Source of the DNA: an uncultured Oligoflexales bacterium
Lineage (GTDB): Bacteria > Bdellovibrionota_B > Oligoflexia > Oligoflexales > CAZZCU01
Assembly (NCBI GenBank): GCA_964652825.1
Contig: CAZZCU010000004.1
Coordinates: forward strand, 47,818-111,817
Direction of reading: 5' to 3'
DNA length: 64,000 nucleotides
A model generated the notes under the pieces. It did not search any database, was not told the DNA's origin, and worked only from the letters and a program-made list of their open reading frames with translations. A program made the translations under genes and the position numbers. Shown in pieces: positions 1-60,693 of this stretch (the first letter of the stretch is position 1; each line of letters opens with the position of its first letter).

Positions 1-609
1 GGTGATCACCCACAGCGGTGTGTCGATCAGCAGCGCCGCCAGCTCGCGCAGTTCATGCTCGCTATAAACAAAACCAGCCGGATTATTCGGCGAGTTTAGC
101 ACCAAGGCTTTGGTTCGCGGCGTGATCGCCGCGCGCACCGCCGCCACATCGATACGTTTGCCTGCCAGCAAATCCGCCGGCGGAATGACAACGGCCTTAC
201 CACCCATAGCCTCCACCTGGCTGGTGTAGCTAACCCAGTAGGGCGCTGGGATAATCACCTCGTCACCCTCGTTGATCAAGGCCATGAAAATATGAAACAG
301 GATTTCTTTGGCGCCGATACCAGCCACGATTTGTTCCGGATCATAAGTCAGCTGATTGTCGCGCTTTAATTTCTCGACAATCGCCTGGCGCAGCGGTAGC
401 CCGCCGCCCGGCGCGCCGTATTTGGTTTTGCCTGCTTGCAGACTCGCAATTGCTTTGTCGATGATTGGTCGTGGTGTCGCGAAATCTGGTTCACCAACCG
501 CCATGTTCGTGACTTTGATGCCCTTCGCAATCATGGCTTTGGCTTCATTGTTCAAAGCAATGGTCGGCGATGGTTTAAGACTACTGATGCGGTTTGATGC
601 TTCTAACAC
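1..609 (-). CDS. Class I PLP aminotransferase (aspartate aminotransferase-like); N-terminal 203 codons only, gene continues past the left edge
   Basis: Absent from the ORF track because it runs off the edge. My minus-strand translation from GTG at 609 (GGAG 7 nt upstream) reads VLEASNRISSLKPSPTIALNNEAKAMIAKGIKVTNMAVGEPDF...GDEVIIPAPYWVSY...LVLNSPNNPAGFVY. This is the typical AspC/AspB N-terminal half, including the N-x-P-x-N-P-x-G motif. The frame stays open to position 1. Confidence 0.8.
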   Translation of the reverse strand, partial: MLEASNRISSLKPSPTIALNNEAKAMIAKGIKVTNMAVGEPDFATPRPIIDKAIASLQAGKTKYGAPGGGLPLRQAIVEKLKRDNQLTYDPEQIVAGIGAKEILFHIFMALINEGDEVIIPAPYWVSYTSQVEAMGGKAVVIPPADLLAGKRIDVAAVRAAITPRTKALVLNSPNNPAGFVYSEHELRELAALLIDTPLWVIT

Positions 610-752
610 AACCACTCCAAAGAGCGTGTCACTAAAATTTGCTAGGCATCATATTGGTTTTGGCTGGTTTTGCAATGCAGGGTTCGGATTTTAACGGAAA
701 AAATGCACATGCGCGGATGATCGAACGACGATTTACCGGAAAGGCAGGGCGA

Positions 753-965
753 GGGCACCGGGGCAAGTTGCTGAGAGCTCGGGGAACCCACCAAATTAGG
801 TGGGCGCCATCGACCCGCATTTTAGGCTTCCCTCTACAGCCGAAGCGGAGGGCTTGCACACCATGCAGGAAATGCGGCTCCCTAGTACGTTAGCATCGGT
901 TCTCCGGCGGTATTCAACACTTGCCCCGGTGACCCCATTTGGAAGTATAACACGGCGGTGTTTTT
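753..965 (+). ncRNA. Candidate structured RNA, family unassigned (free-standing sRNA or cis-acting leader of rsmI)
   Basis: Nested helices read directly from the sequence: 756-768/919-931 (13 bp), 780-788/898-906 (9 bp, with a G783-U903 pair valid only on the + strand), hairpin 789-802, 815-822/870-877 (8 bp) enclosing hairpin 830-852, and a small hairpin 855-867. A weak hairpin plus T-run follows at 949-965. It lies in the 390-bp divergent gap between the aminotransferase and rsmI. Confidence 0.3.
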
Positions 966-1000
966 GGATCACGCGGAATCGGGGAGAAAAGAGGCTTTTG

Positions 1001-1852
1001 ATGCTCAAACAATGGCAGGCGCCATGCATTTATGTCGTTGCAACACCAATCGGCAATTTGGATGATTTATCAACAAGAGCCAGGAAGTTATTGATCGATG
1101 CGGATCTTATCCTCTGTGAGGATACACGTCGTACGCGACAGTTGTTGTCGCATCTCGGAATTAATAAGAAAAGCCTGGTTAGTTATCAAGGTTATGCGGA
1201 AGCCGCGAAAGCCGAGCCGATGGTGCGACGGATCGTCGAGGAATGCTTGACAGCGGTATTGGTCTCTGATGCGGGAACACCATGCATTTCCGATCCAGGT
1301 TATCGTCTGGTGGATGCGGCGCGCACTTTGAATATTCCGGTTCACCCGGTGCCGGGTGCTTCCGCTTTAACGGCATTATTGAGCGTGAGCGGTCTGCCGA
1401 CGGATCGTTTTACGTTTGTTGGTTTTTTGCCGGCGAAGTTAAATGCACTGAAAACGGAGATCGCCGCCTGGAACGGGTCGATCGTATTTTTTGAATCGCT
1501 GCGTCGCTTGGGCAAAACGTTGCAACTTATCGCCGACCGCTTTCCTGGCGCGCGCGTGGTTATCGGTCGGGAGTTGACCAAGCTGCATGAAGAAATTGTT
1601 CGCATGGATATCGCTGAAGCGCTGGTTTGGGTGGATCATCATCCAGTATTGAAAGGCGAAGTTGTCGTGATGGTGAATGTCGGCGAGACGCCTATGGATG
1701 GTGACAAAAATAGTACGGAAGATTTGCGCGCCGAGATTGTCAAAGCCGTGCGCGGTGGTGCGACGATTAAAGATCTCATGCAGCAATTTCGGCACCGCGG
1801 TTTATCGCGCTCCGAGTTGTATCAGACCATGCTGGATAGCAAACGCAAATAA
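1001..1852 (+). CDS. rsmI: 16S rRNA (cytidine1402-2'-O)-methyltransferase RsmI
   Basis: IYVVATPIGNLDDLSTRA...LILCEDTRRT...VSDAGTPCISDPGYRLV...GASALTALLSVSGLPTDRFTFVGFLP...RELTKLHEE matches the RsmI/tetrapyrrole-methylase fold along its length. I chose ATG 1001 (GGGGAGAAAAGAGG upstream) rather than the track's 800; the upstream 67 codons look non-coding. Confidence 0.9.
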   Translation: MLKQWQAPCIYVVATPIGNLDDLSTRARKLLIDADLILCEDTRRTRQLLSHLGINKKSLVSYQGYAEAAKAEPMVRRIVEECLTAVLVSDAGTPCISDPGYRLVDAARTLNIPVHPVPGASALTALLSVSGLPTDRFTFVGFLPAKLNALKTEIAAWNGSIVFFESLRRLGKTLQLIADRFPGARVVIGRELTKLHEEIVRMDIAEALVWVDHHPVLKGEVVVMVNVGETPMDGDKNSTEDLRAEIVKAVRGGATIKDLMQQFRHRGLSRSELYQTMLDSKRK

Positions 1853-1907: not shown

Positions 1908-2471
1908 TTACTTGCCCGTCGCTTCGGCGATGGCTTCTTTGCTATGGTCTTTGTCCGCGGCGAAAATCTTTTTCAACAAACCAGCTCGTTCGTTGATCGG
2001 AATTTTGCGCGGCTTGGATAACTCAGCTTTGGGAATCGCTACGTGCAAGACGCCGTTTTCGTAGGTGCATTCAATCGCGTCAGCTTTGACGTTTTCCGGT
2101 AGCGAGAATTCGCGCCGAAATTCGCCGTACTGGCGTTCGATGCGGCGATAGTTGTCCCGCTTCACTTCGTCAGCGTAATTGCGGACGCCGGAAACAGTCA
2201 GACTATTACTTTTCACCTCGATATCGATGTCCTCCTTTTTTAAACCTGGCAGATCAAAGCTCAAAAGGTAACCATCATCATTTTCCGAAATGTCGACCGT
2301 GGGTGACAGCCTGTGGCTGCGACTGGTCGGTCGCTGCATCAACGCCCAGCCCGGCCCCGAAGTGTCGAAGGCGTCGTCGAAATCCCGTAAGAGATCCGAC
2401 CACGGTCCCCAGAACAAATCGTCACCTAGCGAGGGTTGTCGCCGTATTAAAGCCTGGTTCGTTCGTGCCAT
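1908..2471 (-). CDS. Small heat-shock protein, Hsp20/alpha-crystallin family
   Basis: The alpha-crystallin domain is visible: PTVDISENDDGYLLSFDLPGLKKEDIDIEVKSNSLTVSGVR...ERQYGEFRREFSLPENVKADAIECTYENGVLHVAIPK. GGAGG precedes the ATG. Confidence 0.9.
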   Translation of the reverse strand: MARTNQALIRRQPSLGDDLFWGPWSDLLRDFDDAFDTSGPGWALMQRPTSRSHRLSPTVDISENDDGYLLSFDLPGLKKEDIDIEVKSNSLTVSGVRNYADEVKRDNYRRIERQYGEFRREFSLPENVKADAIECTYENGVLHVAIPKAELSKPRKIPINERAGLLKKIFAADKDHSKEAIAEATGK

Positions 2472-2728
2472 AAAATCCTCCTTTCAAGAAAGCGACGTAT
2501 GACGCGTCATTGGTCATTTCGTCGTAAAAAACCTAATGCGGCTTCATCCGCCGTCAAGGGGTGGACGCTGTTTTGACTTGCCATTTTTTGTAATGATTTT
2601 AATGTATTATTAATAACTATAAAAATTTATTGATTTTTATTAAAAAATGTGTAAATTATGCGCAATAGTAATATATATTAATAACGAGCATGAAACATAC
2701 AATCGGCGATAAAGTGGAGCAAATACCT

Positions 2729-3961
2729 ATGCGTACGTCCAAGCAAATTTATCTTGGTCTTTTGGCAGTGATAGCAGGATTGGTCACGCAACCAGCGACC
2801 GGGATGGAAGACACCAAAGTCTTACCCAAGGGCGTTCGCAACGTTATTCTGCGCTCGGTCAGCACCGAGATTTCCTCAAGCACGGATGCCGGCGGTAATC
2901 AACGTCCGCTTGGTGCGCAGTTGGAACAAGGCGTGACTTTCAGTCAATTGACGGCCACCCGCTCTGGTTTGGATCGCGCGCAATCCGAAGCCTTCCTCCA
3001 GCAAAACGGTTTCGCCGCTGATGAAAATATCGGTCAATTTACTGCTGATCTGCGCGGTAAAGTTCAGGTCATCGCCCCGGTGTTTTCTTATGGGGTGACT
3101 GAGCGCTGGACTTTGGCGTTGGCGGTGCCGGTTTATAGCGCGCATACCGCTGTTGATGTCGGCTTTCGCACTAATGCACGCGGCCAGGAATTCATCAATC
3201 TGCTCGCCAGCCCGCAACACAATAACACGCAAAAAGCCCGCGAAGCCGCCACGCAAATGAATCTTGCCATGGCTCGCATGCAGGCCAAGCTTGCTGCCAA
3301 CAATTATCAGCCGCTCGAAGACTGGAGCGCGACGGCTCTCGGCGATATTACTTTGCTGAGTAAGTATCGTGCTCTCTCAACACCTGTGGCAAGTGTCGCT
3401 GTGTCCAACGGTATAATTCTGCCGACTGGTCGCGTTGATGATCCAAATATTTTACATGATATTGGTTTTGGTAACGGCGCTTATGGTCTGTTGACCGGCG
3501 TGAGTGTGGACGAGCCTCTGGTCGGTCCGTTTTTCCTCAATCAATATGCGCAATACACGGCTTATTTACCGGCAACACGTTCTCTGCGCATGAAGACGGC
3601 GGACGAAGCTCTCGAAGTTTCGACTGAAGCCGTACGTGTTGACGCCGGCGATAAATTCGATCTCGGTGCTTCTTTGCAGGCGGATGCCGACAACGGTCTG
3701 CAAGGCGGCGTTGGTTATATCTGGTCCAAGAAACTCGGTGATAAAATTCGCGCTGGTGACAGCCGTGCCGCTCTCGAAGCCAACACCGTACAAACCTCGC
3801 AAAATGCCGAGGCGGCACTGGGCTACAGCACGATCGCCGCGTATCAACGTGGAACGGCGGCCGTGCCTTTCACCGCGCTGGGTACGTTTCGCAAGCAAGT
3901 ACGTAGCACGAATTCACCGGTTAGTGATCAGCTTCAGTTTGATGTTAAAGTTTATTTCTAA
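2729..3961 (+). CDS. Outer-membrane beta-barrel protein (MetA/phenol-degradation-like transporter family is a guess)
   Basis: Signal peptide MRTSKQIYLGLLAVIAGLVTQPATG. The sequence shows an alternating amphipathic pattern and ends ...QLQFDVKVYF, the C-terminal aromatic typical of OMPs. ATG 2729 has GGAG 9 nt upstream; the track's alternative start is 2690. Confidence 0.6.
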   Translation: MRTSKQIYLGLLAVIAGLVTQPATGMEDTKVLPKGVRNVILRSVSTEISSSTDAGGNQRPLGAQLEQGVTFSQLTATRSGLDRAQSEAFLQQNGFAADENIGQFTADLRGKVQVIAPVFSYGVTERWTLALAVPVYSAHTAVDVGFRTNARGQEFINLLASPQHNNTQKAREAATQMNLAMARMQAKLAANNYQPLEDWSATALGDITLLSKYRALSTPVASVAVSNGIILPTGRVDDPNILHDIGFGNGAYGLLTGVSVDEPLVGPFFLNQYAQYTAYLPATRSLRMKTADEALEVSTEAVRVDAGDKFDLGASLQADADNGLQGGVGYIWSKKLGDKIRAGDSRAALEANTVQTSQNAEAALGYSTIAAYQRGTAAVPFTALGTFRKQVRSTNSPVSDQLQFDVKVYF

Positions 3962-4019: not shown

Positions 4020-5951
4020 ATGACGACCTATAAAAAACAAATTGAAAAAACCGTACTACTTTTGGCGCCTCTGGGGTTTTTGCTCGGAGTGGGTGTGGCT
4101 GTCTTGATGCTGGTTAGTTGCGGGATTCAGGCCAAAGCCAAAAAGCAGGCGGTTGAACAATTTGAGGTCCCAGAATTCTCGCCGCATGGTACGGGGTTTT
4201 ATTTGAACAGTGCTGATCAGCAAAAAACCTTCAATGGTTCGTTGTTGGTCTGGAATCAGCAGGCTACCACTGAGCAGGTTGCCGGTGTTATGAATGTAAC
4301 CGCCGCCTCCACGGGAGCGCAGGTCGGTATGCTTAAGTACATATATGAAGACGTCGCGCCATTGGCGCAAGAACTCGAAATCGCACTGGCCAAACGCGTG
4401 GCGGCGGAAAATGCTATGCATCAAGACGCCGCTGGTCCGAGTATTCAAGCCGCTGATGCGATGTTTGAACAGATGTTGGTCGAGGCGAATGCCCAGCGCG
4501 TACTTAGTGACGAAGACGTCGCCCATGCGCGCGTTGTCTTTGGTTATTACTGCGAAGCCAAATTGTGGGAGCGTGCTGTACATAATCAATTGATCGATGT
4601 TCGTTATACGCGCCGACCGTTGCCGGCGGCGATGTGTGAGTCGGTTTATCGTCAGCTTGCTTTAATTCCGGAGACCGAAGCTGCTTGTGCCCCCAAAGCG
4701 GAAGGCGCCAATTACTTTGAGTGTTTGTGGCAACATGGCGTGCTCAAGTCGCGATTGCTGACCATTGTCTATGACAGTGACGCGACTATTTTGGCCAAGG
4801 TACAAAAATTGTCACCAGCTTTGTTACGCAACAAGAAAAATTTTGGTGTAGTTGATAATTCGCAATCGCGTAATTTTCTGAAACTAAATCAAGTTTCTAT
4901 AAAAGATGAGCAAGGTGTTGTTGTCGATGCGATCCCGGCGGTGACAACCCGCCAGACCCGCGATGCTATTATCGGCTCTCGTTCGGTCTTCGATTTTATC
5001 AACGACGTTGAAGCCGGTCGCTTGACCTTTTTACCGGTATCGACGGAAGCCGATGACGCTGATCCGATACAACAGCGGCAGAGTGAATTCCGTATTCGCT
5101 TGGCCAAATTCAATAAGCTGGCGGAACGCCTGTGGGCGAACGAAGTTCTGGTAAATGCACCGTTCGCGCGTGAGCTGAAAGATGGTTATCGTCAGCTCAA
5201 CCCCGCATTATCGGCGGAGCTGAAAACGCTGTTGCCCGACGTCGTCAATGTTGCTGCTGATCCGAAGTTGGTCGCCGCTTATACCCAAACAAAAGCTGAG
5301 CTTCAGCAGGTTATCGACGCTGGCAAACCACGCCTGACAACGCTTACCGCCGTGGAGCAATGTGAGGATGATAAATCGGAGTTGTTGGTGTGCAAACGCC
5401 AGCGTGCGGCTTTGGCGCAGATGGCATATGTCAGAAATCCCGAGATCGCGCGAGCGCTCTTGAACGTCGAAGTTACCTTGCCACGTGCGGATGTTGATAT
5501 CGTGCATTTACGCCTGCGTTTAAGCGAAGATCCGAGCAAGACGCCAATCGAGGCTTGTTTTAACGTTGCGATTAATCAGCAGGTCCAGTGCGCCAGCGGT
5601 ATGGATCTGATCGATGAATTCAGCATTGATTCACTTACCGGTCGCATCAGTTTAGTTGCTAAAATTTCTGATGCTGACAAATTTGGTTTGGGTAAGCGCG
5701 AGCAAACGACTGATCCGTTCTTTAATTTGATCGATGCCGACTTGAATTCATCGTTTCTCAAAATCGAGCTGGCGCCGAATAATTTATTTGGTTTGGTTGA
5801 TATTCTCAGCGGCAACGCGACGTTGGCGCATGATCGCGATTTTCAGGATATTGTCGCCGCCGGTTCGCTCAACCTGACCGACGCGCGGCCGCCGGTGCAG
5901 ATGGCATACGAGCATTATCTCACCCGCATCACGCAGTGGGATGGCAAGTAA
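4020..5951 (+). CDS. Large lipoprotein of unknown function (643 aa)
   Basis: N-terminal TM/signal segment with lipobox LMLVSC. Long uninterrupted ORF with an RBS (GGGAGAGAGAC before the ATG). No domain recognised. Confidence 0.6.
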   Translation: MTTYKKQIEKTVLLLAPLGFLLGVGVAVLMLVSCGIQAKAKKQAVEQFEVPEFSPHGTGFYLNSADQQKTFNGSLLVWNQQATTEQVAGVMNVTAASTGAQVGMLKYIYEDVAPLAQELEIALAKRVAAENAMHQDAAGPSIQAADAMFEQMLVEANAQRVLSDEDVAHARVVFGYYCEAKLWERAVHNQLIDVRYTRRPLPAAMCESVYRQLALIPETEAACAPKAEGANYFECLWQHGVLKSRLLTIVYDSDATILAKVQKLSPALLRNKKNFGVVDNSQSRNFLKLNQVSIKDEQGVVVDAIPAVTTRQTRDAIIGSRSVFDFINDVEAGRLTFLPVSTEADDADPIQQRQSEFRIRLAKFNKLAERLWANEVLVNAPFARELKDGYRQLNPALSAELKTLLPDVVNVAADPKLVAAYTQTKAELQQVIDAGKPRLTTLTAVEQCEDDKSELLVCKRQRAALAQMAYVRNPEIARALLNVEVTLPRADVDIVHLRLRLSEDPSKTPIEACFNVAINQQVQCASGMDLIDEFSIDSLTGRISLVAKISDADKFGLGKREQTTDPFFNLIDADLNSSFLKIELAPNNLFGLVDILSGNATLAHDRDFQDIVAAGSLNLTDARPPVQMAYEHYLTRITQWDGK

Positions 5952-5973
5952 ACCGAATTGTCTCCGCTACTTT

Positions 5974-7446
5974 TTAGCCAGCTTTGCGTTGCGTCTTGGT
6001 TGTCGTGCTACCGACACCTTGACGCAGCTTGTTGAGCGCATTAAATGCCGCGACGCGATAGGCTTCGGCCAGCGTCGGATAATTGAAAATCATGCGATCG
6101 ACCAGATCGAGCAATTTACCGCCTTGCAACATCAGCGCCTGCCCGATGTGCACCAGATTGCAGGCGTCGGCGCCAACTATATGTAAACCGAGAATTTCCT
6201 GCGTATCGCGGTGGGCGATAATTTTAAGCATGCCGTGATTGTCGCCGCGAATGTGGCCGCGAGCAACTTCCTCAAAGCTGGCATGACCGACGACGTACGG
6301 AATGTTTTCGTTTTGCACGTCTTCCTCGGTTTTCCCGACCGACGATAATTCCGGAATTGTATAAATGCCGATCGGAAAAATATTCGGAAAAGCACGTTCG
6401 CAAACGTCAAACGCATGACAGCAGGCGAAGCGCCCTTGTTCCATAGAGGTTGCCGCGAGTGCCGGTGGACCGATAATATCTCCGGTCGCGTAAATATTGC
6501 TGATCGAGGTCTGGAAGAATTCATTCACGTGCACGGCGCCGCGCGCGGCAATGCGAATCCCATTTTTCTCCAGTCCGAGGTGTTCCGTGTTGGACAATCG
6601 CCCGGCGGAAAAAAAGAAGACATCTGACTCCAGAGTGAGGCCGGGGAATTGCGCCACGACTTTGGGGCCCTCGGCCCGGACGTTTTCGAGTTTCTGTCCC
6701 ATGCGGAATTTAATGCCCATGTCTTCCATGGAACGCTGCAAAGCGCCGGCGACCTCACGGTCAATCGATTGCAGCACATTTTGTCGTTCGTCAACGATCG
6801 TGGTGTCGACGCCAAGCGCGCCGAAGATACAGGCATACTCGCAACCGATCACGCCGGCGCCGTAGATCACCAAAGTTTTGGGAACTTCATCGAGATACAG
6901 GATTTCGTCGGAATCAATGATGCGCCAACCATCAAACGGGATATTCTCCGGGCGTCGCGGTCGCGAGCCGGTCGCCAACATGATCTTCTCGGCGTGATAA
7001 ATCTGACTCACGCCCTGGCTGTCGACGACGCGCACGCTGTGGTGATCTTCGAGGACGCCGGTGCCGTGAATAATCGTGATGTTGTTTGTGTGCAAGTGAC
7101 GACGTACCAGGTCTTCTTCTGACTGGGCGACGCGTGTCGCACGCGCACGAATTTTGCTGAATGACAGATCGGCGACCAGGCGTTCCACCCATGGCTTGCC
7201 GGCATGAAATTGAATGCTTTGCACGGTGGCGAGAACTTCGCGCAAGGTTTTTGACGGTAGCGTGCCGGTGTGAATCCAGGCCCCGCCCAGTTTGTCGGGA
7301 TTCTTCTCGATGATGGCGGCGCGTTTGCCAAGTTTGGCGGCTTGCACGGCGGCATGAACACCGGCAGGACCGCTCCCGAGGACCAGCATGTCGTAAGCCG
7401 TAGTGGCTGGTGTCGACGGCTGTACTGGTTGTTTGGCCTTGGCCAT
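5974..7446 (-). CDS. sthA: Soluble pyridine nucleotide transhydrogenase (SthA/UdhA-type flavoprotein)
   Basis: The FAD motif LVLGSGPAG is present. LGGAWIHTGTLPSK lacks the redox-active CxxxxC of Lpd, as SthA does. The C-terminus IGIYTIPELSSVGKTE...FNYPTLAEAYRVAAFNALNKL closely resembles E. coli SthA as I recall it. Confidence 0.85.
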   Translation of the reverse strand: MAKAKQPVQPSTPATTAYDMLVLGSGPAGVHAAVQAAKLGKRAAIIEKNPDKLGGAWIHTGTLPSKTLREVLATVQSIQFHAGKPWVERLVADLSFSKIRARATRVAQSEEDLVRRHLHTNNITIIHGTGVLEDHHSVRVVDSQGVSQIYHAEKIMLATGSRPRRPENIPFDGWRIIDSDEILYLDEVPKTLVIYGAGVIGCEYACIFGALGVDTTIVDERQNVLQSIDREVAGALQRSMEDMGIKFRMGQKLENVRAEGPKVVAQFPGLTLESDVFFFSAGRLSNTEHLGLEKNGIRIAARGAVHVNEFFQTSISNIYATGDIIGPPALAATSMEQGRFACCHAFDVCERAFPNIFPIGIYTIPELSSVGKTEEDVQNENIPYVVGHASFEEVARGHIRGDNHGMLKIIAHRDTQEILGLHIVGADACNLVHIGQALMLQGGKLLDLVDRMIFNYPTLAEAYRVAAFNALNKLRQGVGSTTTKTQRKAG

Positions 7447-7547
7447 TGGTATTCTCTTTATCTCTTTAGATAGCAGTATGGTACGCTTACGGTATATCGG
7501 TTGGAGGCGGGAATTCTTGATGCTGCCGTCGTCACGGAGGTGATGCC

Positions 7548-60616: not shown

Positions 60617-60693
60617 TGGAGCGGGAAAAGGGACTCGAACCCTCGACCTTCGCGATGGCAACGCGACGCTCTAGCCAACTGAGCTACTCCCGC
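60617..60693 (-). tRNA. tRNA-Gly (anticodon GCC), CCA encoded
   Basis: The reverse complement reads GCGGGAGTAGCTCAGTTGGCTAGAGCGTCGCGTTGCCATCGCGAAGGTCGAGGGTTCGAGTCCCTTTTCCCGCTCCA. The cloverleaf folds by hand: 7-bp acceptor stem, D arm GCTC/GAGC, anticodon stem TCGCG/CGCGA with loop TTGCCAT, and T-loop TTCGAGT. Confidence 0.95.

Follow-up and report, generated by a model that had tools for sequence, protein, structure and literature searches.

Predicted 6S RNA gene on the minus strand between an aminotransferase gene and rsmI in an Oligoflexales bacterium

At one end of the window (the whole 64,000-nt stretch of DNA that was analysed), two genes diverge from a gap of 391 bp, measured from the aminotransferase start (609) to the rsmI start (1001):

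1 to 609, minus strand: 5′ part of a class I/II aminotransferase gene (Pfam PF00155, E 2.3e-30; gene call in L001; synteny).
1001 to 1852, plus strand: rsmI, for the 16S rRNA C1402 2′-O-methyltransferase (PF00590; homologs are named 16S rRNA (cytidine1402-2′-O)-methyltransferase).

What does this gap encode, on which strand, and does it act on rsmI? An earlier note had proposed that the gap encodes no protein but a structured non-coding RNA, about 180 nt long. This holds: the gap gives an Rfam match, is conserved and shows covariation. The same note had preferred an aptamer layout directed toward rsmI and had also considered a free-standing small RNA close to 6S RNA in size; the second idea is borne out and the first is not. 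Sequence comparison leads us to identify window 935→751, on the minus strand, with very high confidence as the ssrS gene, encoding a trans-acting 6S RNA. 6S (SsrS) RNA is a well-known bacterial RNA that binds and dampens RNA polymerase.

The identification starts from a covariance-model search. cmscan against Rfam 15 matched window 935→751 on the minus strand to RF00013 (6S/SsrS) with 67.4 bits, above the gathering threshold of 46.4, and with E 3e-13, a local-search value. The match covers the full model (positions 1–187 of 187), and every feature of the family that can be tested on sequence is present. On the plus strand, the same search returned no Rfam match at E ≤ 10 within 600–1100. The earlier note could not match the element to any family and held that an assignment by cmscan would make it a known RNA. 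RF00013 is such an assignment: the element at 751–935 is an already known kind of RNA, detectable by any Rfam-based annotation pipeline. Rfam and ARAGORN found two RNA genes in the 64-kb window, this one and a tRNA-Gly (GCC) at 60617–60693 on the minus strand.

We then considered the fold of the 185-nt core. The minus strand gives −89.3 kcal/mol (z −5.1; none of 200 dinucleotide shuffles was as good) and the plus strand −82.6 kcal/mol (z −3.6, dinucleotide shuffles). Since the core folds more stably than its shuffles on both strands, the structure is real and exceeds chance. The minimum free energy (MFE) structure of the minus strand is an unbranched rod made, in order, of a closing stem, a downstream helix (P2), a large central bubble and an interrupted apical arm. 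Its parts are the following, with nucleotide n of the RNA corresponding to window position 936 − n:

751 to 935, minus strand: 6S/SsrS RNA gene, 185 nt by the Rfam model.
914 to 935, minus strand: closing (terminal) stem, 5′ arm, RNA nt 1–22 in the minus-strand MFE structure; contains the helix strand 919–931 of the earlier note.
898 to 908, minus strand: P2/downstream helix, 5′ (template) arm, RNA nt 28–38, GCCGGAGAACC; aligns to the Rfam consensus CuGAgCC.
883 to 897, minus strand: central bubble, 5′ half, RNA nt 39–53, GAUGCUAACGUACUA; unpaired in the Rfam consensus, with an invariant GAU.
802 to 882, minus strand: apical (internal) arm, RNA nt 54–134; GGG/CCC, GCC/GGC and an interrupted stem, unbranched.
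835 to 847, minus strand: apical loop, RNA nt 89–101.
789 to 801, minus strand: central bubble, 3′ half (−10-like region), RNA nt 135–147; carries a small CACC/GGUG hairpin.
777 to 788, minus strand: P2/downstream helix, 3′ arm, RNA nt 148–159, GGUUCCCCGAGC.
753 to 774, minus strand: closing stem, 3′ arm, RNA nt 162–183; contains the helix strand 756–768 of the earlier note.

Both sides of the bubble (nt 39–53 and 135–147) align to unpaired positions of the Rfam consensus. The conserved blocks of RF00013 are found in the alignment of the window RNA to the model: GGAGAACCGAU at the junction of downstream helix and bubble, GGGAGCC, GGUGUGCAAGCC, GGGAAGCCUAAAA and CCCACCU...GGUGGGUUCC.

Relatives were obtained from RsmI homologs in protein databases, and the contigs around ten of them were examined. 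These homologs are 54–80% identical, and the named ones come from Oligoflexus and Bdellovibrionota metagenome-assembled genomes (MAGs). Every fetched locus in which the region is present contains a 6S match of 51.6–75.5 bits, and in each case rsmI lies on the other strand. A scan of species-representative genomes with the invariant 3′-bubble motif, followed by cmscan, yielded 12 further 6S genes, and RF00013 picks up every homolog above threshold. A contig scan with a single RsmI protein as query gave zero confirmed relatives. The genomes carrying the gene include Oligoflexus tunisiensis Shr3, other Oligoflexus spp., Oligoflexales MAGs, Bdellovibrio sp. ZAP7 and Pseudobacteriovorax antillogorgiicola. 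Judged by these named relatives, the window comes from a member of Bdellovibrionota, probably of the Oligoflexia.

Outside Bdellovibrionota, the matches of the motif scan were mostly chance hairpins. Among them, a dispersed repeat of about 34 nt, GGGGTGGCCCACCTTTCAGGTGGGTTCCCGTCAAT, occurs on many Zixiibacteriota MAG contigs (L028, L029, L031, L071, L088, L092 and L093 of MAG H41-bin161_1; L052, L065). In L071 and L093 it is present in two inverted copies about 650 nt apart and resembles the ends of a MITE or IS, or a REP-like element. As a 6S candidate it was rejected: it is unrelated and matched the 6S hairpin motif by chance. Another contig, L066 (CAYOEM010000005.1, labelled uncultured Polynucleobacter sp.), carries at 4687–7505 a Bdellovibrionota-type 6S gene (60.9 bits) in the rsmI/6S/aminotransferase arrangement, with RsmI 49% and aminotransferase 53% identical to those of the window. 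The label names a betaproteobacterium, and an error of binning or labelling is possible.

The canonical 6S architecture (closing stem, P2, GGG/CCC, interrupted apical arm) was mapped onto a MAFFT alignment. With ten homologs, 94.5% of the cells are paired and 16 of the 40 pairs are compensatory, with both sides changed, a result that none of 500 column shuffles reached. With 17 sequences, the rod remains 93.2% paired, with 19 compensatory pairs, again more than in any of 500 shuffles. Slid controls gave 39–49% of cells paired on ten sequences, and 36–50% over both alignments. The covariation is concentrated in the closing stem, where 10 of the 11 consensus pairs show compensatory changes in the 17-sequence alignment, and in the apical arm, in helices 5 and 7. 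The earlier note had suggested covariation in related genomes as a check, and these two parts of the rod are the ones it supports. The internal-loop sequences of the apical arm, GGUGUGCAAGCC and GGAAGCCU, are conserved and agree with the Rfam consensus. The helices flanking the bubble, P2 and GGG/CCC, have 95–100% of their cells paired and do not vary; the P2 5′ arm (95% of cells paired) and the 3′-bubble sequence CCCACCU...GGUGGGUUCCC are likewise invariant across the 17 sequences. Because P2, GGG/CCC and the 3′-bubble hairpin are invariant in all 17, their support comes from sequence conservation, and covariation cannot provide it.

P2 contains one exception to regular pairing, an A·C mismatch between A33 (window 903) and C152 (window 784). 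It is kept in eight of ten relatives, the two others having G-C and U·C respectively. This conserved mismatch may weaken the helix at a point where it has to unwind as pRNA is made.

Upstream of the gene, on its own strand, we found a predicted promoter:

944 to 952, minus strand: extended −10 promoter element TGtTATACT (TGTTATACT), with the hexamer TATACT at 949→944.

The extended −10 motif TGNTANNNT lies 3–8 nt upstream of the Rfam 5′ end in nine of ten loci, on the minus strand. Its background in the loci sequences is one per 1738 nt, or 0.017 expected per 30 nt, and at the mirror position on the plus strand it occurs in none of the ten loci. Given this conserved element on the 6S strand, the predicted transcription start falls on the first Gs of the closing stem (G936/G935; 7–9 nt from the hexamer). 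These two residues come 8th and 9th after TATACT, and one of them is probably the true 5′ end of the RNA.

A separate motif, ACTTGTTTTCCAA (ACTATTTTTCCAA in L013), is conserved about 20–35 nt upstream of the 6S extended −10 on the minus strand of L003, L004, L006 and L013. It belongs to the 6S/rsmI divergent promoter region of one subclade and is absent from the window. Its distance from the −10 box is too great for a standard −35 element; it could bind a regulator or, on the other strand, belong to the rsmI promoter (TTGGAAAACAAGT).

On the 3′ side, a 141-nt spacer separates the 6S gene from the start of the aminotransferase gene, which shares its strand and is followed by pheS. By tblastn, most Bdellovibrionota/Oligoflexia loci retain the order aminotransferase ← 6S | → rsmI (window 1–1852; L003, L005, L007, L010, L012, L013, L032, L037, L042, L063, L066, L069, L084). 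In the loci so compared, the 6S gene is always on the aminotransferase strand and upstream of that gene, at a spacing of 100–260 nt in the window and most genomes.

One alternative is a dual-function transcript, as in E. coli ssrS-ygfA: 6S RNA would form its 5′ portion, transcription would continue into the aminotransferase gene, and RNases would excise the 6S RNA. The same-strand spacing is what such a transcript would have, and a terminator scan called no intrinsic terminator in the 141-nt spacer; the 157 nt downstream of 6S fold no better than shuffles (z = +2.3). Against it, the 6S and aminotransferase genes of L003, L007, L012 and the P0034 locus are separated by a histidine-kinase gene of opposite orientation, so co-transcription cannot be obligatory. 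A separate sigma70-like promoter candidate, TTGCAA-16-TATGAT at 675→648, is located between 6S and the aminotransferase start, and in Oligoflexus L010 a T9 run is found about 10 nt past the closing stem. Taken together, we regard the dual-function transcript as possible but rather unlikely. By analogy with E. coli ssrS-ygfA, the 3′ end of the 6S RNA would be either a processing product or the result of partial read-through into the aminotransferase gene. Somewhat more doubtful still is the broader proposal that the Bdellovibrionota 6S gene is fixed in a conserved module, co-transcribed or promoter-coupled with the aminotransferase gene and the divergent rRNA-methyltransferase gene, as the lineage counterpart of the ssrS-ygfA dual-function unit.

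The identification as a 6S gene concerns the minus strand, and the earlier note had read the other one. In that reading, 753–935 would be the aptamer and 949–965 the terminator of a cis-regulatory leader or riboswitch ahead of the rsmI RBS. Part of its basis is sound. The plus-strand helices 756–768/919–931 (13 bp), 753–755/933–935 and 780–788/898–906 (9 bp, including G783-U903) do pair as described, as do the hairpins 789–802, 830–852 and 855–867 and the 8-bp helix 815–822/870–877. The plus-strand fold also exceeds shuffles, as given above, two of the helices use G-U pairs that exist only on that strand, and the element adjoins rsmI in most relatives. The relatives, nevertheless, decide otherwise. 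The G-U pairs had been taken to orient the element toward rsmI, but across the conserved structure in relatives 24 G·U cells against 4 C·A cells favour the minus strand. The outer helices of the note are conserved, and its branch-forming helix 815–822/870–877, on which the plus-strand MFE structure depends, is not: 38.8% of its cells are paired, it forms only in the window and the closest relative (80% identical) of the 10-relative alignment, and its pairing probability in the minus-strand RNA is about 5%. The branched interior had been the reason for setting 6S RNA aside; as the conserved interior is an unbranched rod, that reason falls.

The proposed terminator does not stand either. The weak hairpin and T-run at 949–965 have a 3-bp stem, and no plus-strand terminator was called between 935 and 1000. 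The segment falls on the 6S promoter, over its upstream part and its spacer, and carries the conserved minus-strand extended −10. Nor is the distance to rsmI fixed. In Oligoflexus L010 and L032, three genes, occupying 2.3–2.4 kb, lie between 6S and rsmI, which makes 6S an independent gene rather than an rsmI leader, and in L003, L007 and L012 the 6S gene stays opposite in strand to rsmI despite inserted genes. With the wrong strand, a variable distance, no expression platform and, set against the full-length minus-strand 6S match, no match to a riboswitch or leader family, the rsmI leader was rejected as highly improbable.

The minus strand is therefore assigned on four independent lines: the strand-specific Rfam score, the wobble pairs, the promoter and synteny. 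The conserved A·C mismatch in P2, which on the plus strand would be the G783-U903 pair of the earlier note, is the sole observation that, by itself, favours the plus strand. Least probable of all is a chance or artefactual fold without function, or a small protein encoded in the gap: mechanical ORFs of 75–84 aa do overlap the region, but they lie inside the RNA gene, where covariation keeps base pairing and not codons, and the Rfam E-value, the phylum-wide conservation, the 19 compensatory pairs and the conserved promoter all speak against it.

Identification of the RNA gene also bears on how the neighbouring coding sequences are called. A GTG-initiated ORF of 350 aa (window 800–1852, plus strand) extends rsmI upstream through the 6S gene, and in L012 the deposited 319-aa rsmI call (2501–3460) has 22 nt in common with the 6S gene. 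N-terminal over-extensions of this kind are artefacts, which arise because the RNA gene is missing from the annotation. For this gap, the appropriate annotation is ssrS (6S RNA) on the minus strand, with none of the mechanical ORFs that overlap it called, the 350-aa version of rsmI included.

Beyond rsmI, an HSP20-family small heat-shock protein gene (1908–2471, minus strand) is convergent with it. Between the two, at about 1858–1886, a GC-rich inverted repeat, CCCTCCTTCGC...GGCGGGAGGG, followed by a T-run resembles a bidirectional terminator. Further on, a 423-aa ORF (2690–3961, plus strand) has no Pfam match, a hydrophobic N-terminal stretch and the C-terminus ...QFDVKVYF, which we take to be typical of an outer-membrane beta-barrel. 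Proteins of similar size, also without Pfam matches, are present downstream of rsmI in several relatives.

How would this 6S RNA work? By analogy with the family (PMC8876501, PMC9670815), it would mimic an open promoter and sequester the housekeeping sigma–RNA polymerase holoenzyme, chiefly in stationary phase. It would act in trans, without cis-regulation of rsmI. When nutrients return, a short pRNA would be copied by the polymerase from the 5′ bubble and from the 5′ arm of P2. In E. coli, pRNA synthesis initiates at the conserved U44 (PMC9670815). The CCGAU at the junction of P2 and 5′ bubble is invariant in the 17 sequences, aligns to the Rfam consensus gCCgA and is homologous to that start site, which leads us to predict a pRNA start opposite the invariant U41 (window 895). 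The predicted pRNA would be 5′-AUCGGUUCUCCGG, with 5′-AUCGGUUCUCC as its 5′ start.

For the release step, opening of the downstream helix in E. coli lets its upper arm pair with the −10-like region as a hairpin (PMC9670815, PMC8876501). We modelled pRNA synthesis in silico by blocking nt 29–41 of the window RNA. The MFE structure then switches to a 7-bp hairpin, nt 131–137/144–150, which joins the 3′ bubble to the freed P2 3′ arm and is also predicted in the consensus (RNAalifold). In the free RNA, the 4-bp CACC/GGUG hairpin has a probability of 0.4–0.56. In this model, pRNA synthesis would unwind P2 and free its 3′ arm, the 3′-bubble hairpin would grow to 7 bp, and the RNA:pRNA complex would then leave the polymerase, as in the known systems. 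The modelled refolding parallels the E. coli-type release hairpin.

New here are only minor subtype details (the P2 A·C mismatch and the extended −10 promoter) and the lineage context, with its conserved aminotransferase/6S/rsmI module. How RNA polymerase is controlled by growth phase has, to our knowledge, hardly been studied in Oligoflexia and Bdellovibrionota, which are mostly uncultured and partly predatory; a non-exhaustive literature search on 6S RNA in Bdellovibrio returned no relevant paper. Across these groups, the present analysis documents conservation of the 6S gene, of the extended −10 promoter ahead of it and of the gene's location between aminotransferase gene and rsmI. It also cautions that wobble-pair counts from one sequence may mislead on strand.

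Finally, we compared the window RNA with known systems. Ms1 RNA of Actinobacteria is similar in size, rod-shaped and binds RNA polymerase, but its partner is the core enzyme, and it occurs in actinobacteria that lack 6S RNA (PMC9130861). As an identity for the element, Ms1 was rejected since the element matches the 6S model itself. With B. subtilis 6S-1 (PMC8876501), the window RNA shares the rod, the central bubble and a 4-bp 3′-bubble hairpin already predicted in the free RNA, and a pRNA-driven release cycle would be expected for it as well. Its core sequence, in contrast, follows the proteobacterial consensus and not that of Firmicutes.

The closest likeness is to E. coli and gammaproteobacterial 6S RNA: a full-length RF00013 match of about 185 nt with closing stem, P2, central bubble and interrupted apical arm, and a conserved CCGAU at the junction of P2 and bubble that corresponds to the E. 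coli pRNA start U44. The gene differs in its position, between a class I/II aminotransferase gene and rsmI instead of zapA-ssrS-ygfA. A 5-formyltetrahydrofolate cyclo-ligase gene (ygfA) directly downstream of 6S is absent in the window, where the PF00155 aminotransferase gene is found instead. The ssrS-ygfA arrangement does not define the RF00013 family, and 6S synteny is lineage-specific (PMC8414754). In both RNAs, the P2 3′ arm and the −10-like 3′ bubble can form the extended hairpin, of 7 bp here and 9 bp in E. coli. Unlike E. coli 6S RNA, the window RNA has a conserved A·C mismatch in P2, and its extended hairpin also requires opening of the GGG/CCC helix at the base of the apical arm. The window RNA thus represents a subtype that joins a pre-formed 3′-bubble hairpin, as in Bacillus, to an extendable release hairpin, as in E. 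coli, and to the A·C mismatch in P2.
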